From NCBI RefSeq assembly GCF_036365525.1, contig NC_090378.1, forward strand, positions 45,941,505 through 46,005,504: 64,000 nt of DNA, given 5' to 3'. The stretch comes from Heterodontus francisci. Taxonomy: Eukaryota. The notes under the pieces are model-generated. The model saw only the letters and a list, made by a program, of their open reading frames with translations. It had not been told where the DNA came from and made no database searches. The position numbers were made by a program, and so were the translations under genes. How positions within the stretch are numbered: position 1 is the stretch's first letter; every line of letters starts with the position of its first letter. Of the stretch, positions 2,895 to 59,538 are shown piece by piece.

Positions 2895-3540
2895 ATACGA
2901 ACATAGAATTAGGAGCAGGAGTAGGCCACTCGGCCCTTCGAGCCTATTCCACCATTCAATAAGTTCATGGCTGAACTGATTACTCCACATTACCACCTAC
3001 CCCCGATAACCCTCCACCCCCTTGCTTATCAAGAATCTATCTACCTCTGCCTTAAAAATATTCAAAGACTCTGCTTCCACCACCTTTTGATGAAGAGAAT
3101 TACAAAGACTCATGACCCTCAGAGAAAAGATTTCTCCTCATCTCTGTCTTAAATGGGCGACCCCTTATTTTTAAACAGATATCCCCAGTTCTAGATTCTC
3201 CCACAAGGGGAAACATCCTTTCCACATCCACCCTGTCAAGACCCCTCAGGATCTTATATGTTTCAATCAAGTCGCCTCTTTCTGTTCTAAATTCCAGCAG
3301 ATACAAGCCTAGCCTGTCCAATCTTTCCCCGTAAGACAGCCCACCCATTCCAGGTATTAGTCTAGTAAACCTTCTCTGTACTGCCTCCAATGCATTTACA
3401 TCCTTCCTTAAATAAGGAGACCAGTACTGTACACAGTACTCCAGATGTGGTCTCACCAATGCCCTGTATAGCTGAAGCATAACCTCCCTACTTTTGTATT
3501 CAATTCCCCTCGCGATAAACGATAACATTCTATTAGCTTT
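2895..3540 (-). mobile_element. CR1 LINE 3' fragment
   Basis: ORF 3100-3528 LYRALVRPHLEYCVQYWSP..RGDLIETYKIL is the CR1 ORF2 C-terminus, followed by a CR1-type tail. Confidence 0.92.
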
Positions 3541-13190: not shown

Positions 13191-15909
13191 GCAGATATTT
13201 TATTTTATTTAAATTGTGGTCCCATCGCCGAGCGGCGAGGGAGCTACCACGAGGCCTTGCCCCTTTCGCAGCTGGCAATATCAGGCCAGGCCCTACCGGC
13301 ATCCAGGTCCGTGGCGGGCCTCATCCAAGGCCATCTTCTGGTACCCCACGACTATGGATCCCGACATCGAGGGCTCTATAGAATCCAGCCCGATGATTTA
13401 GAGTAAAACACTCACACAAGATATAAAATGTGTTACCATTTCTATTGTAATCCAGGGGCAATGTCTTGATATTTTTGCTATCGTATCCAAATGTTTGGAA
13501 TAAAAAGCGTGTTGTTTAGATATGGTTGGGCTGTGTGGCAAGCTTTATTGGTGTTTTTATGCGTTTTTTGTGTAGCAGCAGTGGCTGGTTCATTGTGAGA
13601 GGACAAATGTGAGTTTTGCTGTAGCTGAATACTAATGCTAATAAGATGTAATGTTGGTAGCTGATAATATATACGTGTCGTTTAGAAAAAAAAACTTGCA
13701 TGATAGTGCTTGTGGTTGAACAAATTCAATTCATGTCCATGGTTTTGCCATCAATACCTTTGCAAACCCACACATTGATGATAACAGCCAGTCTAAGAAT
13801 TCAGTTGCCTTTATTGTCTTTGACTGAGATTGTCAGCCCTTAATAATTAACATATAAACTTTGACCAATATCAGTTGCGATGCAATTTGCAGTGTTAGAT
13901 AACGCCTGTAGAAAGGGAAAAGAGTTTCTCCATCTTCATATTTTCCAGACTGCCATCCAAGCAGTTTATTGACTCCATTCATTTCTGAAATTTGCTGTTT
14001 GGCACTCATCTTGATTGAAGCATCCAATTTCATGCCAATTTAGTCAGCTTGCTTTCTGACACATTTATTCAAGTTACTTCTCTGTCCTGCCTGATGACGT
14101 TCATGATGAATTAATAAGCTAGTCAGATATCAATGCTTTGATTATCCCATTTGTTTTCTTTAGAATTTTGTTCGATTATTATGAAATCTCTTATACAAAT
14201 TCTCACAAGTACAAATCCAGGTGAAAATGCAGATGGGTGCAAAAATGGCACTGAATTCACCAGCTCAAAAGTGATCACATTCATGCCTGACTGAGGATCT
14301 TAAATCTAAATTGCAGGATCCCACATGCTTTGTTTCATTATTCGAGTGAATGATACTCAACTGGACTATGTAAAAAAAAATCATGTTGTACTCTTTTGTG
14401 ATCTCCATTTAAAATGGAATCATTTTCTTAGTTTTGGCACTCCTTCACTATGCCACTTGGTGGATAGAATGGCATGTAAGCTTCTCAAAGTCCACATGGT
14501 GGCCCTGAGTAAAAAGTTGTTACGTTCCTTCTGCTCAGTACCTCCTCCATTTATGTAGCCAAGACCAAAAATGTGGAATATTAGAAATCACAAGCATAAA
14601 TTGCATCTAAGCACTCTGTGCACACAGCAAACATTCTGCATATATTCTTGATTTGTACATTTTGGAAGCCCAGAACATCACAGGTTATCCACAATTAAAG
14701 TTATTCTATTACATTTAAGCAGTCTTTCTCTGTTTCAACTATTCATTCAATTTTCTCTTAAAAGATGTAAGTTGCCCCGCCTCAACCTCTAACAAAACAT
14801 TCCATGCTGCAACAACATTCTGTATGAAAAAAGTTCTCCTAACCCTCTCCTCACTCTCAAGTTATAATCTTATATTGATAAACCCCACCATTGACTACGC
14901 AGAGGGAATAATCTCTCTCTATTGACTCTATTAAAACCCTTCATAATTTTAAAAGTCTTTATTTTTAGACTAATCATGGTAACATTTTTTATTGCTTAGT
15001 TAACTCAGAGCAAAAGTTATATATTTGCTCATTCAGTAACTACATTTTATGCAGCAGGGTGACTGGGAAGTATTCAGTTATGATAATTTATAGTATACAT
15101 TATTCACACTGAAAAATGTGCATGTAACTCAGGTGTATATTATATATCATATGTGTAAACAGCCATGTGCCATTTTAAGTTGTACAATAGTCATCAATAC
15201 CCAGCATTATAAATTAATAATTTGATCGCAATTGAATAAAGTTTAATATATGTGACAAAATAGAGACCTAAGGGTATTTTATGTTACTCAATTTTGAAAT
15301 AGCTCAAATTGAAATGGAAATGATCTCTTTTCTCATGACAAACTGAGATAAGTATAGATGAGGTTGATTTATCTGAAAATTAAGATATAGGGGCTTTTTT
15401 CCAGGTACTAACTGATTTTGCACATAGACAAGCATCAGTAGGTAATTATGATCTCTGAGATCTGCTCCATCAGTATTCTTATGCAGTAGTTTTTACTATT
15501 GTGTCTAATTGTGGATGATTGACAATTCTGACCTCCGAATCCTTTGGAGTTTATCAATACTGGAGACATTTTCCATCATCTTTAGTTTATCCAAGCGATC
15601 TGAACTCTGTGCGACCCATTTGTCCTCTAAGTAACAGATTTTAAAAAAAACTATGAAGGAGCTAAGAAATTTATAAGAATGTAGGATTTTATTATAAAGT
15701 CAATGAGTGTTGTGCAAAATAAGTAATAGTTCCCTCAGATAACCCATTTATAACGTCATAAACATTTAAAATATTAAAGACAATTTCCAAAATTCTTAGC
15801 TTCACATTTCTCAAAGTCCTCCAGCTATTTTTCCCTGACAAGCTTACTCCTTTTTCAAGTGTCATGACTTTTTATACTCAACCATTTTGTTTTGGAACAC
15901 CAATGGACA

Positions 15910-22596: not shown

Positions 22597-22914
22597 GTCG
22601 CACCTGTGATTACAGATTTTTAAGGCAGGACCCAACTGGAGGAGGGAATAGCAGTGCTGTTGGAAGCAGGATGTGTGTGTCAGCCAACTGTGCCCCCGTG
22701 GTGAAAGCTAGCAGGGACGTCTGTTGTTTTTATTCCCCACTAGAATATCAGCTGCTTCTGTCCGCAGGTTTGTTTAATCGGCAGCTGCTCAACAGGCATT
22801 TGAAGGTGGGGCAGAGGTTTGGAAACTGTCTACATCAGACAGCGTCTAGATAACAGAAGAAAAATTCATGTTAATCACATTTCTTTTGTAAAGATCAAAT
22901 AGTTGCATTAAAGA

Positions 22915-25900
22915 GTACTAATGAGAAACGCTAAGGGGCAAAAAACGTTAGTAGGGGTTGTATATAGACCCCAAAACTGTAGTGGTGATGTTGGGAATGG
23001 CATTAAACAGGAAATTAGAGACGCATGCGATAAAGGAACATCTGTAATTATGGGTGACTTTCATCTGCATATAGATTGGGCAAATCAAATTAGTCACAAT
23101 ACCGTAGAGGAGGAATTCTTGGAGTGTATACGAGATGGTTTTCTGGACCAATATGTTGAGGAACCAAATAGAGAACAGGCCAATCCAGACTGGGTATTGT
23201 GTAATGAGAGAGGAATAATTGACAATCTAGTGGTGCGAGACCCCTTGGGGATGCGCGACCATAATATGATAGAATTCTTCATCAAGATGGAGAGTGATGT
23301 AGTTGATTCTGAGACTAGGGTCCTGAATCTTAGTAAAGGAAACTACGAAGGTATGAGGTGCGAGTTGGCTGTGATGGATTGGGAAATGTTACTTAAAGGG
23401 ATGACGGTGGATAGGCAATGGCAAACATTTAAAGAGTGCATGGATGAACTGCAATAATTATTTATCCCTGTCTGGCTCAAAAGTAAAACGGGAAAGGTAG
23501 CCAAACCATGGCTTACAAGGGAAATTAGAGATAGCATTAGATCCCAGGAAGAGGCATATAAATTTGCCAGAAAAAACAACAGACCTGAGGATTGGGAGCA
23601 GTTTAGCATTCAGCAAAGGAGGACCAAGGGATTGATTAAGAAGGGGAAAATAGAGTACGAGAGCAAGCTTGCAGGGAACATAAAAACTGACTGTAAAAGT
23701 TTCTATAGGTATGTGAAGAGAAAAAGATTGGTGAAGACAAATGTAGGTCCCTTACAGTCAGAAACGGGAATTTATTATGGTGAACAAAGAAATCGCTGAC
23801 CAACTAAATGCATACTTTGGTTCTGTCTTCCCAAAGGAGGACACAACTATCATACCAGAAATGTTGGTGAACACAGGGCTTAGTGAGAGAGAGGAACTGA
23901 AGGAAATCAGTATTAGTAGAGAAATGGTGTTGGGGAAATTGATGGGATTGAAAGCCGATAAATCCCCAGGGCCTGATGGTATGCATCCCAGAGTACTTAA
24001 GGAAGTGGCCCTAGAAATAGTGGATGCATTGGTGCTCATCTTCCAAGACTATTTAAGAAAGGTTGTAGAGCTAAGCCAGGGAACTACAGACCAGTGAGTC
24101 TCACGTCAGTGGTAGGGAAACTATTGGAGAAAATTCTGAAGGAGAGAATCTATCTCCACTTGGAGAGGCAAAATTTGATTAGGAATAGTCAGCATGGCTT
24201 TGTCAGAGGGAGGTCATGCCTAACAAATTTGACTGAATTTTTTAAGCATGTGACCAGGTGTGTAGATGAGGGTAGTGCAGTTGATGTAGTTTACATGGAT
24301 TTCAGCAAAGCCTTTGACAAGGTCCCACATGGAAGACTTATCAAGAAAGCAAATGCACATGGGATACAAGGTAACTTGATGATAAGGTGGATTCAAAATT
24401 GGCTTAGCTGTAGGAGACAGAGAGTGATGACAGACGGCTGTTTTAGTGACTGGAAGCCAGTGTTCAGTGGCGTACCACAGGGATCTGTGCTGGGTCCCCT
24501 ATTGTTTGTCATTTATATAAACAACATAGATGACTATGTGGGGGGTAGGATCAGTAAGTTCGCGGATGACACAAAGATTGGCCGAGTGGTTAACAGTGAG
24601 GTGGAGTGTCTTCGGTTACAGGAAGATATAGACGGGGTGGTCAAATGGGCAGAAAAGTGGCAGATGGAATTTAACGCTGAAAAGTGTGAGGTGATACACT
24701 TTGGAAGGAGTAATGTGACATGGAAGTATTCAATGATTGGCCTGACACTGGGAAGTTCTGAGGAACAAAGGGACCTTGGCATGTTTGTCCATAGATCTCT
24801 GAAGGCAGGAGGGCAGGTTAATAGGGTGGTGAAAAAGGCATACGGGACACTTGCCTTTTTCAATCGAGGCATAGATTACAAAACAGGGAGGTCATATTGG
24901 AGTTGTACAGAACTTTGGTAAGGCCACAGCTGGAGTACTGTGTGCAATTCTGGTCGCCACATTATAGGAAGGATGTGATTGCATTGGAGGGGGTGCAGAG
25001 GCGATTCACCAGGATGTTGCCTGGGATGGAACATTTAAGCTATGAAGAGAGGTTGGATAGTCTTGGGTTGTTTTCGCTGGAGCAGAGAAGACTGAGGGGT
25101 GACCTGATCGAGGTGTACAAGATTATGAGGGGCATGGACAGGGTGGATAGGGAGCAGCTGTTCCCCTTAGTTGAAGGGTCAGTTATGAGGGGTCACAAGT
25201 TTAAGGTGAGGGATGGGATGTTTAAGGGGGTCTTGAGGAAGAACTTTTTTACCCAGAGGGTATTCACAATATAAATGATTTAGAGGGAACTAAATGTAAT
25301 ATCTCCAAATTTGCAGATGACACAAAACTGGGTGGGAAGGGTGAGTTGTGAGGAGGATGCAGAGAGGCTTCAGGGTGATTTGGACAAGTTGAGTGAGTGG
25401 GCAAATGCATGGCAGATGCAGTATAATGTGGATAAATGTGAGGTTATCCACTTCGGTAGCAAAAACAAGAAGGCAGATTATTATCTGAACGGCTATAAAC
25501 TGAGAGAGGGGAATATGCAGCGAAACCTGGGTGGTCTTGTACACCAGTCGCATGCAGATGCAACAGGCGGTAAAAAAGGCAAATGGTATGTTGGCCTTCA
25601 TAGCGAGAAGATTCGATTACAGGAGCAGGGATGTCTTGTTGCAATTATACAGGGCCTTGGTGAGGCCACACCTGGAATATTGTGTGCAGTTTTGTTATCC
25701 TTATCTGAGGAAGGATGTTCTTGCTATAGAGGGAGTGCAGCAAAGGTTTACCAGACTGATTCCTGGGATGGCTGGACTGACGTACGAGGAGAGATCAAGT
25801 CGGTTAGGATTATATTTGCTGGAGTTCAGAAGAGTGAGAGGGGATCTCATAGAAACCTATAAAATTCTAACAGGACTTGATAGGGTAGATGCAGGAAGGA

Positions 25901-33296: not shown

Positions 33297-36200
33297 ATGA
33301 AAAAAGGAAAGAAGGTACCAGCCCTTCGCTTTGCAAGCTGGAACGTCAGAACTATGTGTCCTGGCCTGTCGGAAGACCTTACACAAATCAACGATTCTCG
33401 GAAGACCGCCATCATTAACAACGAGCTCAGTAGATTCAATGTGGACATTGCAGCACTTCAGGAGACTCGCCTCCCCGCGAGTGGCTCTCTAGCAGAGCAA
33501 GACTACACCTTCTTCTGGCAGGGCAGGGATCCTGAAGAACCAAGACAGCATGGAGTGGGCTTCGCCATCAGAAACTCCTTGCTCAGCATGATAGAGCCTC
33601 CCTCAAATGGCTCGGAACGCATACTGTCCATCCGACTGCTCACCACCTCTGGTCCAGTACACCTACTCAGCATCTATGCTCCAACACTCTGCTCCGCACC
33701 TGAAGCTAAAGACCAGTTCTATGAACAACTCCATAACATCATTAGCAGCATCCCCAACACCGAACACCTATTCCTGCTGGGGGACTTTAATGCCAGGGTT
33801 GGGGCCGACCATGACTCATGGCCCTCCTGCCTTGGGCGCTATGGCGTTGGAAGGATGAATGAGAACGGGCAGAGACTGCTTGAGTTGTGTACCTATCATA
33901 ACCTCTGCATCACCAACTCGTTCTTTCACACTAAACCCTGTCACCAGGTTTCATGGAGGCACCCAAGATCACGTCGTTGGCACCAGCTAGACCTCATTGT
34001 CACAAGGCGAGCCGCCTTAAACAGTGTTCAAATCACACGCAGCTTCCACAGTGCGGACTGCGACACCGACCACTCCCTGGTGTGCAGCAAGGTTAGACTC
34101 AGACCAAAGAAGTTGCATCATTCCAAGCAGAAGGGCCACCCGCGCATCAACACGAGCAGAATTTCTCACCCACAGCTGTTACAAAAATTTCTAAATTCAC
34201 TTGTAACAGCCCTTCAAAACACTCCCACAGGGGATGCTGAGACCAAGTGGGCCCACATCAGAGACGCCATCTATGAGTCAGCTTTGACCACCTACGGCAA
34301 AAGTGCGAAGAGAAATGCAGACTGGTTTCAATCTCATAATGAAGAGCTGGAACCTGTCATAGCCGCTAAGCGCATTGCACTTTTGAACTACAAGAAAGCC
34401 CCCAGCGATTTAACATCCGCAGCACTTAAAGCAGCCAGAAGTACTGCACAAAGAACAGCTAGGCGTTGCGCAAACGACTACTGGCAACACCTATGCAGTC
34501 ATATTCAGCTGGCCTCAGACACCGGAAACATCAGAGGAATGTATGATGGCATGAAGAGAGCTCTTGGGCCAACCATCAAGAAGATCACCCCCCTCAAATC
34601 TAAATCGGGGGACATAATCAACGCAAACAGATGGACCGCTGGGTTGAGCACTACCTAGAACTGTACTCCAGGGAGAATGCTGTCACTGAGACTGCCCTCA
34701 ATGCAGCCCAGCCTCTACCAGTCATGGATGAGCTGGACATACAGCCAACCAAATCGGAACTCAGTGATGCCATTGATTCCCTAGCCAGCGGAAAAGCCCC
34801 TGGGAAGGACAGCATTACCCCTGAAATAATCAAGAGTGCCAAGCCTGCTATACTCTCAGCACTACATGAACTGCTATGCCTGTGCTGGGACGAGGGAGCA
34901 GTACCCCAGGACATGCGCGATGCCAACATCATCACCCTCTATAAAAACAAAGGTGACCGCGGTGACTGCAACAACTACCGTGGAATCTCCCTGCTCAGCA
35001 TAGTGGGGAAAGTCTTTGCTCGAGTCGCTCTGAACAGGCTCCAGAAGCTGGCCGAGCGCGTCTACCCTGAGGCACAGTGTGGCTTTCGTGCAGAGAGATC
35101 GACTATTGACATGCTGTTCTCCCTTCGTCAGATACAGGAGAAATGCCGTGAACAGCAGATGCCCCTCTACATTGCTTTCATTGATCTCACCAAAGCCTTT
35201 GACCTCGTCAGCAGACGTGGTCTCTTCAGACTACTAGAAAAGATCGGATGTCCACCAAAGCTACTAAGTATCATCACCTCATTCCATGACAATATGAAAG
35301 GCACAATTCAACATGGTGGCTCCTCATCAGAGCCCTTTCCTATCCTGAGTGGTGTGAAACAGGGCTGTGTTCTCGCACCCACACTTTTTGGGATTTTCTT
35401 CTCCCTGCTGCTTTCACATGCGTTCAAATCCTCTGAAGAAGGAATTTTCCTCCACACAAGACCAGGGGGCAGGTTGTTCAACCTTGCCCGTCTAAGAGCG
35501 AAGTCCAAAGTACGGAAAGTCCTCATCAGAGAACTCCTCTTTGCTGACGATGCTGCTTTAACATCTCACACTGAAGAATGCCTGCAGAGTCTCATCGACA
35601 GGTTTGCGTCTGCCTGCAATGAATTTGGCCTAACCATCAGCCTCAAGAAAACGAACATCATGGGGCAGGATGTCAGAAATGCTCCATCCATCAATATTGG
35701 CGACCACGCTCTGGAAGTGGTTCAAGAGTTCACCTACCTAGGCTCAACTATCACCAGTAACCTGTCTCTAGATGCAGAAATCAACAAGCGCATGGGTAAG
35801 GCTTCCACTGCTATGTCCAGACTGGCCAAGAGAGTGTGGGAAAATGGCGCACTGACACGGAACACAAAAGTCCGAGTGTATCAGGCCTGTGTCCTCAGTA
35901 CCTTGCTCTACGGCAGCGAGGCCTGGACAACGTATGCCAGCCAAGAGCGACGTCTCAATTCATTCCATCTTCGCTGCCTTCGGAGAATACTTGGCATCAG
36001 GTGGCAGGACTATATCTCCAACACAGAAGTCCTTGAAGCGGCCAACACCCCCAGCTTATACACACTACTGAGTCAGCGGCGCTTGAGATGGCTTGGCCAT
36101 GTGAGCCGCATGGAAGATGGCAGGATCCCCAAAGACACATTGTACAGCGAGCTCGCCACTGGTATCAGACCCACCGGCCGTCCATGTCTCCGTTATAAAG

Positions 36201-37794: not shown

Positions 37795-39612
37795 TGTTAC
37801 AGTGCAGAAGAAGGCCCATGGTATCTGCACTGGCTCTCTGAATTAGCAGTTCACCTGGTGCCACTTCCCTGCCTCCCCCTTGTAATCCTGCGCATTCTTC
37901 CTTTTCATATAACTGTCTAATTCCCTTTTAATGCTTCAATTGAACCTGCCTCCACTACACTCGTTCACAATCTGCCACCTGTCCGCCCATTCCACCAACT
38001 TGTCTCTGTCCTTTTGAAGTTATACGCTATCGTCCTGCAGTTCACAATGCTTTCAAGTTTCGTATCATCCGCAAACTTTGAAATTGTGCCCTGTACACCA
38101 AGGTTTAGGTCATTAATATATATCAGGAACAGAAGGGGTCCCAGCACTGACCCCTGGGGAACTCCACTACAAACCTTCCTCCATCCTGAAAAATGTCCAT
38201 TACCCACTACTCTTTGTTTTCTGTCACTCAGCCAATTCGGTATCCATGTTGCTACTGTCCCATTTATTCCATGAGCTGTAACTTTGCTCATACGTCTGTT
38301 GTGTGGCACTGTATCAAACACCTTTTGGAATTACATGTACACCAAATCAACTGCATTACCCTCATCAGCCGTCTCTGTTACCTCTTCAAAAAGAAACTCC
38401 AGCAAGTAAGTTAAACATGATTGTCCCTTAAGAAATCCATGCTGGCTTTCTTTAATTAACCCGCATTTGTCCATGTGATAATTAATTTTGTCCTGAATTA
38501 ATCTTTCTAGAAGTTTCCCCACCATCGAAGTTAAACCACCTGGCCTATAGCTGCTGGACTTATCTTTACACCCTTTTTTGAACAAGGGTGTAATGTTTGC
38601 AATTGTCCAGTCCTCTGGCACCACTCCGAGTCTAAGGAAGACTGAAAAATTATGGCCAGTGCCTCTGCAATTTCCGCTCTCACTTTCCTTAGTATCCTTG
38701 CATGCATCTCATCTGGTCCTGGTGCCTTATTCACTTTGAAGTACAGACAACCTATCCAACACCTCCTTATCAATTTTAAACCCTTCTAGTGTTTGAATGA
38801 TCTCCTCTTTCACCATTGCCTGGTTTGCATTTCTTCCTTGGTAAAGACGATGAAAAGTATTTATTTGATACCTTAGCTCTGCTCTCTGCCTCCATATGCA
38901 AATCCCTTAGTTGGTCCCTAATCAGCCCCACTGCTCCTCTTACCACCGTTTTACTATATATATGTCAAGAGAAAACTTTGGGATTCCTTTTTATGTTAGC
39001 TTCAAGCCACTGTCCATTCTCTCTCTTTGCTTTTCTTATTTGCTTTTTCACTTACTCTCTGAACCTTTTATATTCAGCCAAGCTCTCAATAGTATTCTCT
39101 ACCTGGCATCTGTCATAAGCACACTTTTTCTTCTTTATCTTAATCTCTATTTTGTCATCCAGGGAGCTCTGGATTTGTTTGCCATACCTTTCCCCTTTGA
39201 GGGAACATATCTTGACTGTGCCTTAACTATCTCTTCCTAACCATTTTTCCTGCCAACCTTTGACTCCAATTTGTTTGTCCCAGATCCTTTCTTAGCCCCT
39301 TGAAGCTGGCTTTCCCCCAATTGATTATTCTTACTCTGGATGGTTCTTTGTCCTTTTCCATAGTCAGCCTAAACCTTATGATACAATGATCACTGTCCCC
39401 TAAATGTTCTCCCACTGATACTTGATCCACTTGGCCCACCTCATTCCCAAGAACCAGGTCTAGCAGTGCCTCCTTTCTTGTTGGACTGGAATCATACTGC
39501 TGTAGAAGATTTTTCTGAACACACTCTAGGAACTCTTGCCCCTCACTGCCCTTTACACTACTACTATCCCAGTCTATGTTTGGATAATTAGAGTCCCCCA
39601 TTATAACTACCT
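37795..39612 (-). mobile_element. Internally deleted CR1 inserted into the Gypsy integrase
   Basis: GDSNYPNIDW, KAPGPD, QHGF, GVPQGSVLGP, FADD. The integrase resumes at about 39665 (LDNFLFSYRVTPQSTTG). Confidence 0.9.
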
Positions 39613-40699
39613 GATTTGCTAGGTGACAAGCTAGGTACTAATGTCCATGTTTTTCTTCGACACAGGCTAGACAATTTTCTGTTCTCTTACAGAGTAACTC
39701 CACAGTCTACAACAGGTTGCTCACTTTACCAGTTAATGTTAAAACACAAAGTTCAGTTTGTTTAAGCCTGACGTGAATAGGAAAGTAAGAGAAAAGCAAG
39801 ACAGAGTGAAAATGAGTCATGATACACAAGGCATGAAACTTAGAGAGTTCAGTAGTGGTTAGTAGGTCATGGCGATAAACCACAGAGGTGATAGGTTGTT
39901 GGGAGTGGTTGTAAAAAGTCTAGGTGCATTCACATATGCAGTGAGGATTGGAGAGAGACTCTGGTCAATGTCATGCAGATCATTTGCTTGATACAGGAAA
40001 TCTGACAGGAGGAGAGTATGTGAAACCTCCTATAGTCCAAGTTCCTACAGTCCCAAATGAAAGTCAGAATGAAAGTGAAAGTCACAAAGAAACTGAAAGT
40101 TTACCAGTATCTCAGGATCCAGCAGTAGAGCAAAGTGAGTCAGGGTCTTTGATTAAGACTAATCAATCAATTTCACAGTCGCAACCATTAAATGGAGTTG
40201 GTAGTCAAAGTCAAAGTTCAGAGTCGACAGTCTGAGATGTTGGGAGAGCAGAGTCAAGCTAATGGAAATGGAAGAGGAGACCCAGACAGAAAGAGAAAGA
40301 AGCCAGATAGGTTAATTGAAAATATGTAGGAAGGAAGAAATAAGTTGTTCCTTTCATTATTTTTTTGTCAAATTATGATATTTTTGTTAAAGACATACTG
40401 GTGTAAAGGAAAAACTTTTCTTAACATGTAAATTACTCTGGAAATATTGGTTATATATGTTTTAGTTGTGATTACAGTCACAAGCATGCAACCCAACCTG
40501 TTAAATATCAGGTATTTATGGGAAATAATGCACCTGTTCCATTTTATATTTTAATGTATAATTTTTTTTAAAGTAGGGTGCGAGTGTGGTTTATTTAATC
40601 GCTGAGCATTTTGTATACTGCCCTCTCTGCTGCCCTTTCTGTTGGGGAGGTGTAAATAAAGTTTGTTGGACAAAAGCTACTTACACTGAGAGACTTCAT

Positions 40700-44449: not shown

Positions 44450-45705
44450 AGAATATTACAGTACAGAAAGAGGCATTCTGCCCATCGTGTTCGTGCCAGC
44501 TCTCTGCAAGAACAAGTCAGCTAGTCCCACTTCCCAGCTGTTACCCGTAGCCCTGCACAATTTTTTCTTCAGGTGTTTATCCAATTCTCTTTTGAAAGCC
44601 ACTGTTGAATATGCCTCAGGCAGTGCATTCCAGATCCTAACCACTCGCTGCGTAAAAATGTTTTTCCTCATGTCGCAGTTGGTTCTTTGCCATTCACCTT
44701 ATACCAGTGTCCTTTGGTTCTCGACCCCTCTGCCAATGGGAACAATTTCTCTCTAGCTGCTCTGTCCAGACACATCATGATTTTGAACACCTCTATCAAA
44801 TCTCCTCTCAAGCTTCTCTCCTTTAAGGAGAACAGACCCAGCTTCTCCAACCTATCCACGTTACTGAAGTCCCTCATCCCTGGAACCATTCTCGTAAATC
44901 TTTTCTAAAGCCTTCACATCCTTCCTAGAGTGTGGTGCTTAGAACTGGACATAGTGCTCCAGTTGAGGCCAAACCAGTGTTTTATTAAGGTTCATCATAA
45001 CTTCCCATAAAATCCAGGATCCCATATACCTTTTTAACCATTTTCTCAACCTGCTCTGCCATCTTCAACAATTTGCGCACATATACCCCTAGGTCTCTCT
45101 GTTCCTGCACCTCATTGAGAATTGTATCCCTTATTTTATATTGCATCTCCTTGTTCTTCCTATCAAAATATATCACCTCATACTTCTCTGCATTAAATTT
45201 CATCTGCCATGTGTCCGTCCATTCAACGAGCCTTTATATGTCCTCTTGGAGTCTATCACTATTCTCCTCACAGGTCACAGTACTTCCAAATTTTGTGTCA
45301 TTTGCAAATGTTGAGTTGTGCCCTGTGCACCCAAATCTAGGTCATTAATATATATTGAAAAATGCAGTGATTCTAACACTAACCCCTGGGGAACCCCATT
45401 GTTTACCTTTCTCTAGTCTGAAAAACAACTTCACCATGACTGTCTTTTTCCTGTCACTTAGCTAACTTTGATTCCATGCTTCCACTGCCCGTTTTATCCT
45501 ATGAGCTTCAATTTTGCTGGCAAACCTGTTATGTGGCACTTTATCAAACGCCTTCTGGATGTCCATGTATGACACATCAACTGCATTACTATCATCAACC
45601 CTTTCTGTTATCTCATCAAAAAACTCAGTCATGTTAGTTAAACATGATTTTCCTTTAACAAAACCATGCTGGCTTTCCTTAATTAATCCACAATTGTCCA
45701 AGTGA
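44450..45705 (-). mobile_element. CR1 3' portion
   Basis: SQHGFVKGKSCLTN, KAFDKVPH, RGDLIEVFKIM, FTQRVVRIWNALP. Confidence 0.9.
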
Positions 45706-46049
45706 CAAGTTAGATAATTGGGGCACATATGCACACTGCTGGGGCACCAGGGTGCTGGTCTAGTGACCCACTTATAAGTCAATGGATTTATATAAATCTG
45801 ATGTAACTAAATACAAAATTTTGGAAAGAGAAGTTCTTAGAGGAAAGGAATATAATAAAATAAATGTCTGATTATACACCACAATGACTTTGATACAGAA
45901 ATGGACTCGACTGAATGCAATTTACAAACCTACAAATAAAGAACAGCAAATGACCAACAGCTCTGTCAAGCCTGTTGCGCCCCAATATAGTGTGGGCTAC
46001 ACTGACACACCCCCACCCTCTTCTCCCGCCGACCCCACCCCTTGCTCTC

Positions 46050-48540: not shown

Positions 48541-49746
48541 GTTGCCCTTTTAATTTGTGCCCCCTGCTTTGTTCTGATGGGCCTTTGGAGGTATATTACA
48601 GCTAACAGTGATCAATTTTGGGCCAATAGCTTGATTCAGATTGTCTCAGCAGACCTATATAATCTCTCATTAAGTCACCACTAACAAACAGAGTCACATC
48701 CCCTCCTTTTTGTCCTATTCTGCCCTTTAGTAATCCCTTTAACTGGAATTCTACTCCATCCTTTGCATCTAATTATATCTCTGAAAACTGCCATCGATTG
48801 CTGCAAGATGTGGAGGATTGTGGGGGAGGAGTTACCCCAACTATTTGTTCTGAGCCCTAGCACATGCCCAGGTGACCTCGAAGCAAAATCACTGTTTCGC
48901 TTGAAACCTTCTGTAACTGATGGGCACTGCAGGACATTATCTGTCTCATCAATTGCAAGCATAAATCTACGCATACATTTTTGATTTGACTGGGCAGCTT
49001 TTGTATTCGTGGTGCCCTTCTCTTGGCTGGTTGTGATGGGGGCTACTTCGAGTGGTATTTGTTCTTCTGGCATTGGGCTCATGTCCAGTGCTACTCTGGC
49101 CCAGCTGCAAATTAGGACCATATTACAGAGATATCTATAAGATCTAATTTTTCCAGAGGTGCCCTATGACTGTAATTCTAACGTTTTATTTCTAATGCTT
49201 CTAGCATTTACAGTAAGCATTTTGAGGTCCCTAGTAACTCGCTACTTATGAACCCTCTTCTCTTTGTTCCATTCCTTATCGTGAAATATATTTGAGACTT
49301 TAGTACTGGCAACAGCATGTGCAGCTCTGCTGTTCTTCAAAGAGCAGGTCTTTTATAAATGAGTGACTTTGAACAGATGGCAACACAGTATTAAGGAACA
49401 TAAACAAACCAGGCGGAACCCATACCCACCTCTTATGCTGTGATGGCATGCAAATCTAGGAAACCTCATAATTCTCTCCGCTCAGCACTTTGTGTGCAGC
49501 CATCTGTAGGAGAAGATCAAATAAAGCAAATCTATGCACAAAATAATATTGCGTTAATACCACTGGCCTCCCTTTGAGGTAGTTAGTTGATTTGCAGCTG
49601 TTTTTTCCCCTTACAATTAAAAGAACTCTTAAATCTAACTCACATCTTTAATAGTCGTGATTCATAATCCAGTAAAACTCACTTGGAAATCATAGGAACC
49701 AGTCCATTTTACTTGGTATGGATTGTAAATAACAATGGGAAGGCGG

Positions 49747-49821
49747 TGGCTTAGTGGTATTATCACTGGACTAGTAACCCAGAGACCCAGGGTATTTCTC
49801 TGGGGACATGGGTTCGAATCC
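49747..49821 (+). promoter_or_regulatory. Type 2 RNA polymerase III internal promoter
   Basis: A box TGGCTTAGTGG at 49747-49757; consensus B box GGTTCGAATCC at 49811-49821. Confidence 0.8.
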
Positions 49822-50088
49822 CACCACAGCAGAAGGTGGAATTTGAATTTAATTAATAAATCTGGAATTAAAAGCTAGTCTATGATGGCCATGAAACCAT
49901 TGTCGATTGTTGTAAAAACCCATCTGGTTCACTAATGTCCTTTAGGGAAGGAAATCTGCTGTCCTTACCTGGTCTGGCCAACATGTGACTCCAGACCCAC
50001 AGCAATGTGGTTAACTCTTACATGCTCTCTGAAATGTCCTCGCAAGCCACTCAGTTGTACCTAACCGCTACGAAGTTAATAAAAAGTA

Positions 50089-52959
50089 ATGAAACCGGAC
50101 GGACCAGCCAACATCGACCTAGGCACCGGAAACGACAACGGCAAACCCAGCCCTGTCAGCCCTGCAAAGGTCCTCCTTACTAACGTCTGGGGGCTTGTGC
50201 CAAAGTTGGGAGAGCTGTCCCACAGACAAGTTTAAGCAACAGCCTGACATAGTCATACTCACGGAATCATACCTTACAGACAATGTCCCAGACACTGCAT
50301 TCACCATCCCTAGGTATGTCCTGCCCCACCGGCAGGACAGACCCACCAGAGGTGGTGGCACAGTGGTACATAGGGAGGGAGTTGCCCTGGGAGTCCTCAA
50401 CATCGACTCCGGACCCCATGAAGTCTCATGGCATCAGGTCAAACATGGGCAAGGTAACCTCCTACTGATTACCACCTACCGCCCTCCCTCAGCTGATGAC
50501 TCAGTACTCCATCATGTTGAACACCACTTGGAGGAAGCACTGAGGGTGGCAAGGGCACAGAATGTACTCTGGGTGGGGGACTTCAATGTCCATCACCAAG
50601 AGTGGCTCGGTAGCACCACTACTGACCGAGCTGGCCGAGTCCTAAAGGACATAGCTGCTAGACTGGGTCTGCGGCAGGTGGTGGGGAAACCAACACAAGG
50701 GAAAAACATACTTGACCTCGTCCTCACCATTCTGCCTGCTGCAGATGCTTCTGTCCATGACTGTATTGGTAGGAGTGACCACCGCACAATCCTTGTGGAG
50801 ACGAAGTCCCGCCTTCACATTGAGGATACCGTCCATCGTGTTGTGTGGCACTATCACCGTGCTAAATGGGATAGATTTCGAACAGATCTAGCAATGCAAA
50901 ACTGGGCATCCATGAGGCGCTGTGGGCCATCAGCAGCAGCAGAATTGTACTCAACCACAATCTGTAACCTCATGGCCCGGCATATCCCCCACTCTACCAT
51001 TACCATCAAGCCAGGAGACCAACCCTGGTTCAATGAAGAATGCAGGAGGGCTTGCCAGGAGCAGCACCAGGCATACCTCAAAATGAGGTGTCAATCTGGT
51101 GAAGCTACAACACAGGACTATCTGCATGCCAAACTGCGTAAGCAGCATGCGATAGACAGAGCTAAGCGATCCCATAACCAACGGATCAGATCTAAGCTCT
51201 GCAGTCCTGCTACATCCAGCCGTGAATGGTGGTGGACAATTAAACAACGAATTGGAGGAGGTGGCTCCACAAATATCCCCATCCTCAATGATGGGGGAGC
51301 CCAGCACATCAGTGCGAAAGATAAGGCTGGAGCATTTGCAACAATCTTCAGCCAGAAGTGCCGAGGTGATGATCCATCTCGGCCTCCTCCTGAAGTCCCC
51401 AGCATCACAGATGCCAGACTTCAGCCAATTCTATTCACTCCGCGTGATATCAAGAAACAACTGAAGGCACTGGATACTGCAAAGGCTTTGGGCCCTGACA
51501 ATATTCTGGCATTAGTACTGAAGACCTGTGCTCCAGAACTTGCGGCGCCCCTAGCCAAGCTGTTCCAGTCCAGCTACAACACTGGCATCTGCCCTGCAAT
51601 GTGGAAAATTTCCCAGGTATGTCCTGTACACAAAAAGCAGGACAAATCCAACCCGGCCAATTACCGCCCCATCAGCCTACTCTCTATCATCAGTAAAGTG
51701 ATGGAAGCTGTCATCAACAGTGCCATCAAGCAGCACTTGCTTAGCAATAACCTGCTCAGTGACGCTCAGTTTGGGTTCCGCCAGGGCCACTCAGCTCCTG
51801 ACCTCATCACAGCCTTGGTTCAAACATGGACAAAAGAGCTGAACTCAAGAGGTGAGGTGAGAGTGACTGCCCTTGACATCAAGGCAGCATTTGACCGAGA
51901 TTGGCATCAAGGAGCCCAAGCAAAACTGAGGTCAATGGGAATCAGAATGAAAACCCTCGGCTGGCTGGAGTCATACCTAGCGCAAAGGAAGATGGTTGTG
52001 GTTGTTGGAGGTCAATCATCTGAGCTCCAGGACATCACTGCAGGAGTTCCTCAGGGTAGTGTCCTAGGCCCAACCATCTTCAGCTGCTTCATCAATGACC
52101 TTCCTTCAATCATAAGGTCAGAAGTGGGGATGTTCGCTGGTGATTGCACAATGTTCACCATTCGTGACTCCTCAGGTACTGAAGCAGTCCGTGTAGAAAT
52201 GCAGCAAGACTTGGACAATATCCAAGCTTGGGCTGATAAGTGGCAAGTAACATTCGTGCCACACAAGTGCCAGGCAATGACCATCTCCAACAAGAGAGAA
52301 TCTAACCATCTCCCCTTGACATTCAACAGCATTACGATCGCTGAATCCTCCACTATCAACATCCTAGGGGTTACCATTGACCAGAAACTGAACTGGAGTA
52401 GCCATATAAATACCGTGGCTACAAGGACAGGTTAGAGGCTAGGTATCATGAGGCGAGTAACTCACCTCCTGACTCCCCAAAGCCTGTCCACCATCTGCAA
52501 GTTAGGAGTGTGATGGAATACTCTCCACTTGCCTGGATGGGTGCAGCTCCAACAACACTCAAGAAGCTCGACACCATCCAGGACAAAGCAGCCCGCTTGA
52601 TTGGCACCCCATCTACAAACATTCACTCCCTCCACCACCGACGCACAGTGGCAGCAGTGTGTACCATCTCCAAGATGTACTGCAGCAATGCACCAAGGCT
52701 CCTTAGACAGCACCTTCCAAACCCGCGACCTCTACCAACTAGAAGGACAAGGGCAGCAAATACATGGGTACACCACCACCTGCAAGTTCCCCTCCATGTC
52801 ACACACCATCCTGACTTGGAACTATATCGCCGTTCCTTCACTGTCGCTGGGTTAAAATCCTGGAACTCCCTTCCTAACAGCACTGTGGGTGTACCTACCC
52901 CAAATGGACTGCAGCAGTTCAAGAAGGCAGCTCACCACCACCTTATCAAGGGCAATTAG
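50089..52959 (+). pseudogene. APE-RT ORF of the tRNA-headed LINE, disabled in this copy
   Basis: Frameshift near 50230, stop at 52433-52435, frameshift near 52500, and catalytic FADD reads FAGD. Confidence 0.88.
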
Positions 52960-54052
52960 GGATGGGCAATAAATGCTGGCCTGGCCAGCGTCGACCACAT
53001 CCCATGAATGAATTAAAAAAAATAACCTGACAATGTTCAATAATGAATATTATTGTCAACAAAAGCGATTCATAATCCTGAGTCTGCTTTCATATAAGAA
53101 TCTATTGATAATGACTGATAGAAAACCTGGAAGTCATTTATTCCTACTATTCTGATATTTTGTCTTAAGTCATCCATATATCTTTTTAAGCTAGATCTTT
53201 AATGACAGAAATATACTGGCTGAAAGTCTGCATCTGTCTTTTACAAGCAGCATCCACAATCTGAAGAACCACTCCTTGGTGCCCTGCCAGTGTAGTTCAA
53301 AACGCCTTTCATCACTTCTCTGCAAGTAGTGTCACAAAATATTTAGCATCGTATGTTTGAAAACCCCGACCAGAAGTAATGCTGCAGAGAAGATTTATGT
53401 TTAAGATCAAAACCGATAGAAAAGGACTAACTTTCTATTACCTGATTCCTGAGATTAGCCTTCACTGTCACCTATAAAACTTCAAATTCCTTTACAGCAA
53501 TCAATATTGCGTAACTTTCTGGACATCCAATTGCTACTTTTCCCTCTTCAGAAATTGAAACATTTTAGGTGACCTGCATCAAAAATGAAACACCCTTGAC
53601 ATATAGTTTGAAGGATGTAAGTGCACCAAAGTGAAACCTAATATTTCAGTCTTGTTATTGTAGTCAGAAATGTTAGAAGTGTACATTTTTTTGGTGAGGT
53701 GGGAGGTGGTGAGGTATGTTGGCATTGATCCTCTGTAACACTTTTTAAAACTGAAGCTATCTCCAGATTAAAGAATAAGATTTTTATTTTGTTCCCACTT
53801 TTCTTTCAATTCCTCTATTTTTAGTTTCCTGAATCTTGGGTATTAAAATGAAAGAATAGACAACATCCTGATGCTGTTAATCTCATTGGTATGAGGGATG
53901 ACTCTTGCTTTTCATATTTAACCCCTGGAATTATACCTCTGTTTCATAAGTCTTACTGTTGGGATGGCTATAATTGGGAATTCACTGGATGGGACAGTGC
54001 ACATGTTGAATATCTTTCACCTTTTTAAAGATTGTATGCAGCTTGAAAATAG

Positions 54053-55224: not shown

Positions 55225-58200
55225 CATAACATCATAGAACAATACTGCATGGCAGGAGGTCATTATGGCCAACATGCCTCTGCTGGGTCTTTGAAAGAGC
55301 TTTCCAATTAGTCTCCCTCCCCTGTTCTTTTCCCATAGCCCTGAAAATTTCTCCACTTAAAGTATTGATCAAAATTCCTTTTTGTAGTTATCATTGAATC
55401 TGTTTCCACCACCCTTTTAAACAGCATATTCCAGATCATCATAACTCGCTGCGCAAAAGCTTTTTTCCTCATATTGCATCTGGTTCTTTGGCCATTTACC
55501 TTAAGTCTGAGTCCTCTTGTTGCTGACCCTTCTGCCACTGGAAGCAGTTTCTCCTCATTTTCCCTATCCAAACCCTTCATGATTTTGAATATCTCTATCA
55601 AATTTCCCCTTAACCTACCTTGCCATAAGGAGAACAACCTCAGTTTCTCCAGTATCTCCATATAATTGAAATCTTTCATCCCTGGCACCATTCTTGTAAA
55701 TCTTCTCTGCACCTTCTCTAAGGCCTTGTTCTCCTCCTTAAAGTGTGGTGCCCAGAATAGGCCACAATACTCCAGCTGGGCCCTAACCAGTATTTTATAA
55801 AGGTTAAGAATAATGTCATTGCTTTTTTTACTCTGCACTTCTAGTTATAAAGCCAAGGAGCCCATATGCCTTTCTGACAAATTTCTCAACTTTTCCTGCT
55901 ACCTTCAAAGACTTGTGCACCCAAACCTCCAGGTTTTCGCTGTTCCTGCATCCCCTTTAAAATTTTACTGTCTAGTTTATGTTGCCTCTCTTCAATCTTC
56001 CTACCAAATTAATCATTTCACACTGCATTTAATTTCATTTGCCATTTGTCTGCACATTTCACAGTCTATCGATATCCTCCTGAGGTACTATCCTCCTCCC
56101 TGTTTACTATATTTCCAGGTTTCGTGTCATCTGCAAAGTTTGAAATTATGCTCTGTATAGCCAAGTCTAGGTCATAGAGTTATACAGCACAGAAACAGGC
56201 CCTTTGGCCCATTGTGTCTGTGCTGGCCATCAAGCACATATCTATTCTAATCCCATCTTCCAGCACTTGGCCCGTAGCCTTGTATGCTATTGGGTTTCAA
56301 GTGCTCATCTAAATACTTCTTAAATGTTGTGAGGGTTCCTGCCTCTACCACCCCTTCAGGCAGTGTGTTCCAGATTCCAACCACCCTCTGGGTGAAAGTT
56401 TTTTTCCTCAAATCCCCTCTAAACCTCCTGCCCCTTACCTTAAATCTATGCCCCCTGGTTATTGACCCCTCCACTAAGGGAAAAAGCTTCTTCCTATCTA
56501 TCTTATCAGTGCCCCTCATAATTTTGTATACCTCAATCAGGTCCCCCCCTCAGCCTTCTCTGCTCTAAGGAAAACAACCCTAACCTATCCAGTCTCTCTT
56601 CATAGCTGAAAGCCCAGGCAACATCCTGGTGAATCTCCTCTGCACCCTCTTCAGTGCAATCACATCCTTCCTATAGTGTAGTGATCAGAACTGTACACAG
56701 TATTCCAGCTGTGGCCTAACTAGCGTTTTATACAGCTCCAGCATAACCTCCCCGCTCTTATATTCTATGCCTTGGCTAATAAAGATAAGTATCCCATATG
56801 CCTTCCTAACCACCTTATCTACCTGTTCCCCTTCAGTGATCTATGGACAAGTATACCAAGGTCCCTCTGACCCTCTGTACTTCCTATGGTCCTACCATCC
56901 ATTGTATATTCCCTTGCCTTGTTAGTCCTCCCAAAATGCATCACCTCACACTTCTCAGGATTAAATTCCATTTGCCACTGCTGTGCCCATCTTACTAGCC
57001 CATCTACTGTGGAAAGAGAAGCAGAGTTAACGTTTCGGGTCAGTGACCCTTCTTCGGAAGAAGGGTCACTGACCCGAAACGTTAACTCTGCTTCTCTTTC
57101 CACAGATGCTGCCAGACCTGCTGAGTGAATCCAGCATTTCTTGTTTTTGTTTCAGATTTCCAGCATCCGCAGTATTTTGCTTTTATATTACTAGCCCATC
57201 TATATTGTCCTGTAATCTAAGGCTTTCCTCCTCACTATTTACGACCACCAATTTTCGTGTCATCTGCGAACTTACAGATCATACCTCCTATATTCATGTC
57301 TAAATCATTAATGTACACTACAAACAGCAAGGGTTCCAGCTCCGATCCCTGTGGTACACCACTGGTCACAGGCTTCCACTCGCAAAAACAACCCTTGATC
57401 ATCACCCTCTGTCTCCTGCCACTATGCCAATTTTTGATCCAAATTGCCCTGGATCCCATGAGCTTTTAACTTCTTAACCAATCTCCCATGTGGGAACTTA
57501 TCAAAAGCCTTACTGAAGTCCATGTAGACTACAACTGCTTTACCCTCATCTACACATCTCGGCACCTCCTCGAAAAATTCAATCAAGTTTTTTAGACACA
57601 ATCTCACCCTGACAAAGCCATGCTGACTATCCCTGATTAACCCCTGCCTCTCCAAGTGGAGATTAATCCTGTCCCTCAGAATTTTTTCCAATATTTTCCC
57701 TACCACTGATGTTAGACACACTGGCCTGTAATTACCTGGTTTATCTCTGCTACCCTTCTTGAATAATGGTGCCACATCGGCTGTCCTCCAATCCTCTGGT
57801 ACCTCTCCTGCGGCCAGAGTGGATTAGAAAATTTGTGAGAGCCTCTGTTCTCTCCTCCCTTGCCTCACATAACAGCCTGGGATACATATTACCTGGCCCT
57901 GAGGATTTATCCACTTTTAAGCCCACTAAAACAGCTAATAGTTCCTCCCTTTCGATGCTAATTTGTTCAAGTATACCCCAATCTCCCCCCCCCCCCCTGA
58001 TCTCTACACCTACATCGTCCTTCTCCATAGTGAACACAGATGAAAAGTAATAATTTAAAACCTCACCTATGTCCTCTGGCTCCACACACAGATTTCCACT
58101 TGGGGCCCTCCTCTTTCCCTGGTTATCCTCTTGCCCTTAATATACTTATAAAATGCCTTGGGATTTTCCTTTATCTTGCCCGCCAGTATTTTTTCATGTA

Positions 58201-59538
58201 TCCTCTTCGCTCTCCTAATTACTTTTTTAAGTACCCCCCTACACATTCTATACTCCTCTAGGGCCTCCGCTGTTTTCAGCATTCTGGTCGTTAATACATA
58301 TCATAAAGAGCAGTGGTCCCAACACTGTCCTCTGGGGGAACACCATTGCACAGTTCCCTCCAGTTTGGAAAAACAACTGTTCACCATTGCTCTGCTTTCT
58401 ATCTCTTAGTCGATTTTATATCCACACAGCCACTGCCCCTTTAATCCAATGGGCTTCAATTTTGCTGACAAGTTAATTATGTGCAACTTTACCTTTATCT
58501 CTGAAAACACCTCTGAATGTCCATATATACATCAACTGCACTGCCCTCATCAATCCTCTCTGTTACTTCATCAAAGACGTCACTCAAATTAGTCAAACAT
58601 GACTTGCCTTTAACAAATCCATGCTGGCTTTTATTTATTAACCCATATTTTTCCAAGTCTCGATTAATGTCTCCAAAGGTTTCCCCACCAATGCCATCAG
58701 GCTGACTGGCCTGTAGTTGCTGGGCTTATCCTTCTCCCCTTTTTGAACAGAGGTGTAACATTTGCAGTCCTCTGGCACCACTTCCGTATCTGAGGATGAT
58801 TGGAAGATTGTGACCAGAGCCTCCACAATTTGCACCCTTCCTTTAGCAACTGGGAATTCGTTCCGACTGGACTGAGTATCTATTCTTCTTTGAGTCTTGC
58901 CAACGTTTTAAGTACCTCTTTATCTATTTTTATCCTATCCACTTTCTGTACTACCTCCTCATTTATTGTGACATCGACAGTATTCTCTTTAGTGAACACA
59001 GATGCAAAGTAGTCATTTAGCACCTCAGTCATGTCCTTTCCTCCACAGGATCTCCTTTTTAGTCTCTAATCAACCATAATTTTCCTTTGACTACCCTTTT
59101 ACTATTTATATGTTTATAAAATACTTTGGGTTTCCTTTTTTGTTAGCTGCTAATCTATTGTCATACTCTGTCTGCACCTGATTTCTTTTTTAGATCTCCT
59201 TTGTACTTACTGTATTCAGCTTGGTTATCTATTGTATTACGAACCTTACATTTGTCATGAGCTTCCTTTTTCTGTCTCAAGCTCTATATCTTTAATCATC
59301 CAGGGAGCTCTAGCTTCGATGCCCTTCCTTTCCCCCTTGTGAGAATGTGTCTGGTCTGTAACTGAACTATCCCTTATCTGAAGGCCTTCTGGTGCTCATT
59401 TACTGTCTTACCTGTCAATGTTAGATTCCGATCCATCTGGGCCAGAACCCTTTTCAACTCACTGAGTTCACCTCCAGTTGAGTATTTTCACATTTGTTTT
59501 TTCCCTATCCTTTTCCATAACTGCTCAAAACCTAATAT
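55225..59538 (-). mobile_element. Nested CR1s: an old copy (55225-56172, resuming at about 58285) interrupted by a younger copy (about 56175-58280)
   Basis: Two sets of ORF2 motifs (NYRPV, QHGF, GVPQGS, FADD, two C-termini and two tails). Confidence 0.88.
57007..57187. mobile_element. Short palindromic element resembling a Penelope pseudo-LTR, 15-bp TSD
   Basis: Perfect 49-bp inverted arms (57007-57055 / 57057-57105); TSD TTACTAGCCCATCTA at 56992-57006 and 57188-57202. Confidence 0.88.

Follow-up and report, generated by a model that had tools for sequence, protein, structure and literature searches.

[quoted passage not shown] Zenon is an abundant, already catalogued shark and ray retrotransposon, and what is new is the proposed reading of its promoter. 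The layout originally predicted (A box, B box, SINE-like body, a single frame for apurinic-type endonuclease (APE) and reverse transcriptase (RT), and no ORF1) is present in the window sequence, and neither an A-run nor a repeat separates the head from the ORF (Table 1). The copy is 97.5% identical to the family majority, whose ORF runs from a basic leader through APE and RT to a C-terminal region. It is indeed dead, as had been claimed: relative to the family it carries frameshifts of +1 at 50169, +1 near 50231 and -7 at 52496, a stop codon inside the ORF at 52433-52435, and FAGD at 52133-52144 in place of the family's FADD RT motif. Its short 3' UTR closes with T2A8 at 53013-53022.

Table 1. 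Features of the Zenon copy, in window positions.
Feature	Position	Strand	Basis or remark
Decayed full-length elasmobranch Zenon non-LTR retrotransposon with tRNA-derived SINE head	49737..53022	+	Collinear genomic copies
Doubtful left target-site duplication	49727..49733	+	Mate 53020-53026 overlaps the A-tail
tRNA-like head, variable arm enlarged	49743..49831	+	Rfam RF00005, 19.2 bits, below gathering score 29
A box, type-2 Pol III internal promoter (predicted)	49747..49757	+	10 nt inside the element 5' end
Consensus B box (predicted)	49811..49821	+	
SINE body, common to the genome's short non-coding SINE	49832..50056	+	SINE-copy alignment
Family ORF of 975 codons, from stop to stop; broken in the window copy	50043..52959	+	
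Conserved ATG 3' of an A-rich stretch	50089..50091	+	Out of the APE-RT frame in the family
Apurinic-type endonuclease domain	50237..50791	+	Pfam PF14529 and PF03372
Reverse transcriptase domain	51635..52378	+	Pfam PF00078, E 1.5e-33
3' tail common to the short SINE	52946..53022	+	Last ORF codons, AATAAA 52968-52973, hairpin, ATGA repeat, T2A8
First T4 downstream, beyond the element	53158..53161	+	

By sequence comparison, we identify the element as the elasmobranch Zenon of Stuart et al. 2026 (PMC13343379), whose consensus rows include CarCar, HypSab, RhiTyp, ScyCan and SquAca; a 'CR1-Zenon like LINE' has also been reported from the whale shark genome (bioRxiv 10.1101/443036). The element shares with these a single APE-RT ORF without ORF1, an A-tail and a length of about 3.3 kb, and the match was found by motif search and by eye, the first 400 nt being nearly identical and the row lengths similar. 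One ORF with APE and RT and no ORF1 is part of the Zenon definition in PMC13343379, where all Zenons lack ORF1, so its absence here is inherited and not caused by the head. The element ends in poly-A and not in a microsatellite, the short A-tails following an ATGA repeat and some carrying T-runs. A quick RT tree, in which no row bears the Zenon name, separates the family from the CR1 of this genome and puts it in a clade with 98% support. The original prediction had guessed that the family might be catalogued without its promoter property being noted, and this was right: the main text of PMC13343379 has no occurrence of tRNA, pol III or polymerase III, and its passages available to us do not mention the head, the T-run depletion, the absent in-frame AUG or the matching short SINE. 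The endonuclease motif has 10,995 matches, and 24 of the 39 fetched head-bearing copies are collinear across the full 3.3 kb at 92-95% identity. A predicted protein of Heptranchias perlo also contains an exonised Zenon fragment (85% over 213 aa).

The head and the ORF are one unit, and the head is the shared 5' end of the family. Forty scored matches of a query spanning the head and the ORF start, one of them the window itself, showed near-whole coverage at 94-95%. The head was reached (within 30 nt of the 5' end) in 29 of 68 largely unranked copies, the others breaking off at scattered points, and it was carried by 22 of 30 copies chosen with a distant protein, that is, blind to the head. By eye, over the first 400 nt visible, all seven shark and ray Zenon rows start with the head, and the three hagfish and coelacanth rows lack it and contain T4. 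That a SINE merely landed before a 5'-truncated LINE at this locus, with the missing TTTT a matter of composition, is practically inconceivable: although the short SINE, with 3,057 exact matches to its junction, is abundant, the identical head-ORF junction recurs in the fetched copies and in the consensus rows of five other species, which already refutes chance adjacency, and a composition-matched RTE control has T-runs.

Within the head, the A box is well kept across copies, with most change falling on its CpG, and by eye it is found in all seven elasmobranch Zenon consensus rows; the B box is intact in six of the seven, the stingray row being one base short. A tRNA-like 5' head with A and B boxes is what characterises SINE2 elements, although here the tRNA resemblance is weak by Rfam, the score lying below the gathering threshold, and ARAGORN called no tRNA in the focal head. 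ARAGORN likewise called nothing in 52 of the 78 metagenome relatives, a result that is uninformative because the program also misses the focal head. An A-plus-B box pair was found upstream in none of these 78 loci, many of which are short, and neither the head nor the tail had a real BLASTN match in the 78 relatives. The invertebrate relatives (P0001-P0012, L070) belong to the same well-supported clade in the quick RT tree, share 36-41% protein identity with the family and in several cases have a basic N-terminal leader, but they differ in that most have T4 at or above expectation and several have a normal Met start. One of them, P0006, is matched by two genomic copies that are free of internal stops.

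T-runs stop Pol III. As originally read, TTTT is absent over the 3,284 nt of the window element, the first T4 lying outside it; the + strand is T4-free from 49707 to 53158 (3,451 nt), the longest such interval in the window (the next is 1,419). The earlier rough expectation of 4-6 TTTT agrees with mononucleotide shuffles, which give 5.2 (P0 = 0.003). The signal is weaker under synonymous-codon shuffling of the window ORF (2.4 expected, P0 = 0.057), and for the family ORF the absence of T4 against its own codon usage is by itself not significant (P = 0.10). The T3 runs are the stronger signal: where 13.1 would be expected in the family ORF, 4 occur (P = 0.001), and T3 loss exceeds what termination at T4 strictly requires. 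In the family majority as a whole, T4 was counted 0 times against 4.7 expected, and T3 runs numbered 8, compared with 46 runs of A3, 49 of C3 and 42 of G3.

The loss of sense-strand T-runs is specific to the Zenon family. The observed/expected ratio for TTT is 0.17 in the family ORF, 1.14 in the RTE ORF and 1.01 in the CR1 ORF, and the RTE control, with near-identical composition, contains four T4 and the CR1 ORF five. Per copy, T4 observed/expected is 0.35 for Zenon versus 0.84-1.75 in four other LINE families of the genome. All seven shark and ray consensus rows lack T4 over the 400 nt visible by eye, and each of the 78 metagenome relatives holds at least one T4 within its matched span. The family majority is T4-free where headless relatives and the other four LINE families have T4, the outcome on which the original prediction depended; the argument draws its weight from the T3 depletion and from five families of one genome, whose copies are not independent. 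Antisense T4 is normal (15 versus 15.1 expected), and for this reason we rejected the idea that the T-runs were lost because the element avoids the target of its own endonuclease.

Among the ORF variants shared between copies, 56 are synonymous, 40 non-synonymous and 1 a stop; among the private variants, 427 are synonymous, 1516 non-synonymous and 88 stops. Since the shared variants are mostly synonymous, the family ORF was under purifying selection, which supports the autonomy of the element. The start of translation is unusual: the first in-frame ATG of the family ORF is at about codon 285, and none lies 5' of the endonuclease. The ATG at 50089, originally taken as the start, turned out to lie off the family's reading frame by one base, and it reads into the endonuclease here only because of the private insertion of the window copy at 50169. 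In the family, this conserved ATG, found in six of seven published consensus rows, opens a 46-codon frame that overlaps the endonuclease start, and inspection of this frame by eye found no canonical -1 slippery heptamer. Plain, pseudoknot-free folding found no unusual stability around the start (z 0.36) or at positions 350-440 (z -0.43), lending no support to an IRES-like or tRNA-mimic fold there. The codon at family position 305 is TAG in 79, CAG in 12, GAG in 12 and another codon in 7 of the copies covering the site. Starting at an in-frame ATG at family position 299 and reading through this TAG was rejected as a general route, because the TAG-to-ATG354 spacings in six published rows are 46, 46, 46, 42, 45 and 38 nt (46 here; by eye) and the variants of the codon do not track subfamilies. 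The absent in-frame AUG would fit a division of labour in which Pol III makes the template RNA and host transcripts that include a copy, whether by Pol II read-through or by splicing, supply the protein, so that no uncapped RNA need be translated; the exonised Heptranchias perlo fragment (85%, 213 aa) points the same way. We consider this quite improbable, since purifying selection along the copying lineages would be hard to keep if the templates did not encode their own protein.

The short SINE copies align with the family over positions 1-321 and resume at 3222-3296, and the long and short forms share the same first base. The 3.3-kb element, with its selected 975-codon frame, is not a short non-coding SINE; its short derivative is. 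The SINE body may resemble that of SacSINE1, including its Deu domain, and the short SINE may be SacSINE1 itself. At the 3' end, an AATAAA lies ~45 nt before the element end, which is the only place where a terminator-length T-run is common. Even there, tails closing in T5 or longer are a minority (4,317 versus 15,747 with one T and then A4), and the majority of copies lack an internal terminator at their end. The proposed target-site duplication AAATAAC is doubtful, lying 3 nt off the 5' end and overlapping the A-tail; a duplication-like repeat of at least 6 nt occurred in 2 of 29 full-length copies tested (null 1.3%), and such duplications were rejected as a family mark because they are rare.

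Taken with these observations, the original claim that this lineage captured a tRNA promoter and purged Pol III terminators is supported in part. Of the outcomes named as refuting it, neither a head confined to this locus nor T4 runs in the consensus or equally T4-free headless relatives were seen, and the selected ORF favours autonomy, but its start codon did not stand and its duplication is in doubt. We regard Pol III transcription of Zenon as rather likely. TFIIIC would bind the two boxes, with Pol III starting ~10 nt upstream of the A box, reading across all 3.3 kb owing to the purge of T4 and most T3, and stopping at a T-run at the very end of the element or at the first flanking T4, which for the window copy would be that at 53158-53161. 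The nearby AATAAA may permit polyadenylation in the manner of T+ SINEs. Translation of the uncapped RNA would have to begin in an unconventional way close to the A-rich stretch at 50077-50091, either at a non-AUG codon in frame with the ORF or at the conserved ATG with a subsequent -1 shift. The resulting APE-RT protein would copy its own RNA through target-primed reverse transcription and may additionally mobilise the short SINE with the same tail. Contigs assembled from four of 24 expression runs cover the element over its entire length, strongly biased to the 3' end; they show no start, end or strand and so do not bear on the polymerase.

In mouse B2, a Pol II promoter lies within a tRNA-SINE. 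Pol II might likewise transcribe Zenon from a promoter inside the captured head, with the same start base, the boxes being retained through TFIIIC insulation, RNA structure or exchange with the abundant SINE, and T-runs being avoided as an escape from U-rich processing or splicing signals. This we consider unlikely. Capped RNA translates more easily, the AATAAA near the end would suit it, and autonomous LINEs are regarded as Pol II units (PMC5786205); however, the genome's four presumably Pol II LINE families show no T-run loss, the head region carries two AATAAA (positions 119 and 343) and nine ATGs 5' of the conserved one, and even a capped RNA would have no usable in-frame AUG. In favour of Pol III, RNAs made by this polymerase retrotranspose without ORF1p (PMC2666806).

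LINEs with SINE or tRNA pieces at the 5' end include BovB and some Ingi; our literature search on such LINEs found nothing relevant. Bov-tA and SINE2-1_ACar also fuse a tRNA head to LINE-derived sequence but have lost the ORF (PMC4494074; PMC5786205), whereas Zenon keeps a whole ORF under selection. The DeuSINEs SacSINE1 and LmeSINE1 of sharks, skate, chimaera and coelacanth (PMC5499810; PMC3747384) resemble the short form in having a tRNA head with A and B boxes, a conserved body and a LINE-type tail, and differ from Zenon in being non-coding and about 400-460 nt long. Their partner LINE has been given as L2-2_CM (78.6% tail similarity) or 'CR1-4_DR-like' (PMC5499810; PMC3747384), whereas the short SINE tail here is the Zenon 3' end itself. 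[quoted passage not shown]

By the accepted split, LINEs are protein-coding and transcribed by Pol II, while SINEs depend on Pol III and, in the words of PMC5786205, 'cannot encode a protein'. We lean towards the view, drawn from sequence comparison, that the Zenon of elasmobranchs mobilises itself through a protein-coding Pol III transcript, 3.3 kb long, uncapped, purged of terminators and translated without an in-frame AUG, and that its enzyme also serves a SacSINE1-type SINE with the same ends. If true, a high-copy vertebrate element with a selected ORF that loses Pol III stops would break the LINE/SINE split, and Zenon would be a concrete partner LINE for the SacSINE1-type SINEs of sharks. 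It would also make testable the translation of a long Pol III RNA in vertebrate cells, initiation without a cap or an in-frame AUG, and whether a LINE profits from swapping in a SINE promoter. Zenon, retained in sharks as well as in rays, would then amount to an autonomous SINE.

All the elements claimed for the focal copy (the A and B boxes, listed in the table below with other features of the window, the APE and RT domains and the A-tailed end) were found where the original prediction had placed them, and so was the absence of TTTT (T4): none occurs between 49707 and 53158, the longest T4-free gap in the window. For the 3,284 nt of the copy, shuffling gave 5.2 expected T4 runs (P0 0.003), and synonymous-codon shuffles of the window ORF gave 2.4 (P0 0.057). 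The tRNA match of the head, the tRNA-like 5' region, at 49743-49831 fell below the Rfam threshold. The copy is indeed dead: its frame is shifted by three indels and cut by a premature stop, and it reads FAGD.

Promoter boxes of the focal copy and other LINEs in the window
Feature	Position	Strand
A box	49747-49757	+
B box	49811-49821	+
RTE-like LINE	about 33500-36200	+
CR1-like element	22912-25091	+
Old LINE fragments	38001-39625, 45006-45785, 55407-59038	-

The head appears to resemble SacSINE1, a SINE treated in PMC5499810 and PMC3747384. In a quick RT tree the focal element grouped with relatives lacking family names, away from CR1. The guess that the family was already catalogued proved right, as it is Zenon (PMC13343379), which that paper places in elasmobranchs, hagfish and coelacanth, always without ORF1 and with poly-A tails. 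Within the first 400 characters of each row in its supplement, all seven shark and ray Zenon rows (five species) start with the focal head, with the A box in 7/7, an intact B box in 6/7 and no T4, and the three hagfish and coelacanth rows lack the focal head and contain T4. Separately, a predicted aldo-keto reductase model of Heptranchias perlo (P0014) includes 213 aa of the focal element at 85% identity, an exonised or mis-predicted insertion.

A query joining the head to the ORF start gave 9,014 candidates in the 6.0 Gb host genome, and the 40 that were scored, which include the window's own copy, match it over almost all of its length. Head and ORF co-occur elsewhere, in one family with a common 5' end: of the 39 fetched non-window copies, 24 are full-length, collinear copies that begin sharply at the 5' end, the others having deletions, insertions or missing 3' parts. 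A degenerate endonuclease motif matched 10,995 places, of which 68 were sampled (67 taken from contig 1 in the order listed, and one chosen for its divergent motif, leaving out two L195 duplicates and one copy fetched before). Twenty-nine of these lack no more than 30 nt at the 5' end, and the rest have breakpoints scattered between positions 35 and 791, with no shared second leader apparent by eye upstream of the broken-off copies among the first 30. The head was also present in 22 of 30 copies chosen via P0006, a distant invertebrate relative protein. Target site duplications of at least 6 nt flanked 2 of the 29 full-length copies tested. Because L195-L197 (contig 1, 7.08-7.12 Mb) are near-identical with identical flanks, and L280 and L281 have alleles in common, these copies are local duplications, not separate insertions.

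The family majority sequence contains no T4 and only 8 T3 runs, versus 46 of A, 49 of C and 42 of G, and its antisense strand has 15 T4 versus 15.1 expected. TTT observed/expected is 0.17 in the family ORF, compared with 1.14 (4 T4, 23 T3 runs) in a host RTE ORF of almost equal composition and 1.01 (5 T4, 30 T3 runs) in a host CR1 ORF. Against its own codon usage, the depletion in the focal ORF held for T3 runs (4 versus 13.1 expected, P 0.001) but not for T4 alone (zero, P 0.10), and the same test found no T3 depletion in the RTE and CR1 controls (P 0.60 and 0.16). Decayed copies gave a T4 observed/expected of 0.35 in the focal family (30 copies); for four other LINE families, each represented by 19 copies, the values were 0.84, 1.12, 1.75 and 1.56. 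Because copies are not independent, such comparisons effectively sample no more than a handful of families. Neither the four other families nor headless relatives are T4-free: 78/78 metagenome relatives (27-45% identity) have T4 within the matched span, the closest, L070, with 6 versus 5.2 expected, and none of the 78, many on short contigs, has an A-box and B-box pair upstream. The T-run loss is specific to the focal family. Two of the old minus-strand LINE fragments, used as controls, are T4-rich on the coding strand. The RTE-like LINE is very young, with many genomic copies 99-100% identical across 2 kb; its majority has an open frame of at least 883 codons, and it is possibly still active. 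The CR1-like element appears chimeric; of the 2.2 kb query, family copies match just the opening 1,149 nt (at 94-95%), the remainder coming from something more distant.

The family has a short non-coding SINE partner, whose joint between body end and tail has 3,057 exact matches in the host genome. Most of 20 fetched short copies correspond to positions 1-321 and 3222-3296 of the family, with heads 76-94% alike, so that the long and short forms have the first base and the tail in common. For LINE and SINE together, tails with one T followed by at least A4 occur at 15,747 places and tails ending in at least T5 at 4,317. With AATAAA ~45 nt upstream of the tail end and a T-run before the A-tail, the focal layout resembles that of T+ SINEs, in which, according to PMC8466645, terminators elongate after A-tails drop below 10. 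The T/A boundary (window 53013-53022) is labile: among 29 full-length copies, 8 have between two and ten Ts ahead of the A-run. The tail T-runs would provide a terminator and may be post-insertion mutations, and are therefore in themselves no evidence for Pol III.

The proposed APE-RT start, ATG 50089, did not hold. It is kept in 103 of the 114 copies covering the position, but in the family it lies one base out of frame and opens 46 codons; the call arose from an insertion at 50169 in the focal copy. Translation in the ORF frame seems favoured over this stretch because that frame encodes an Arg-rich leader, like those of P0006 and two further distant invertebrate proteins (P0002, P0007), and seven of its eight CpGs fall in Arg codons. 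Within the ORF, an in-frame ATG first appears at about codon 285, and therefore a non-standard start is needed, whichever polymerase is used; RNA folding gave no structural support for a translation start. Two codons past an in-frame ATG in good context lies a TAG (window 50040-50042, family position 305), which is CAG or GAG in 24/110 copies, far above background, and may sit in a hairpin loop.

We favour the reading that Pol III transcribes an autonomous element here, and consider it reasonably probable. Its main rival, a Pol II promoter within the head, we consider rather unlikely. LINEs with a SINE or tRNA piece at the 5' end have precedents in BovB and some Ingi elements. In the mostly open-access literature searched, we found no description of a shark LINE that is both autonomous and Pol III-headed. 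The feature itself is real and the family known, and the promoter architecture of the family appears undescribed. The majority sequence of 25 copies has a single 975-codon frame with FADD, and among 137 copies the non-CpG variants present in at least 8% comprise 56 synonymous, 40 non-synonymous and 1 stop, versus 427, 1516 and 88 among private ones. The family ORF was under selection, and therefore the head-bearing lineage would have used its own protein.
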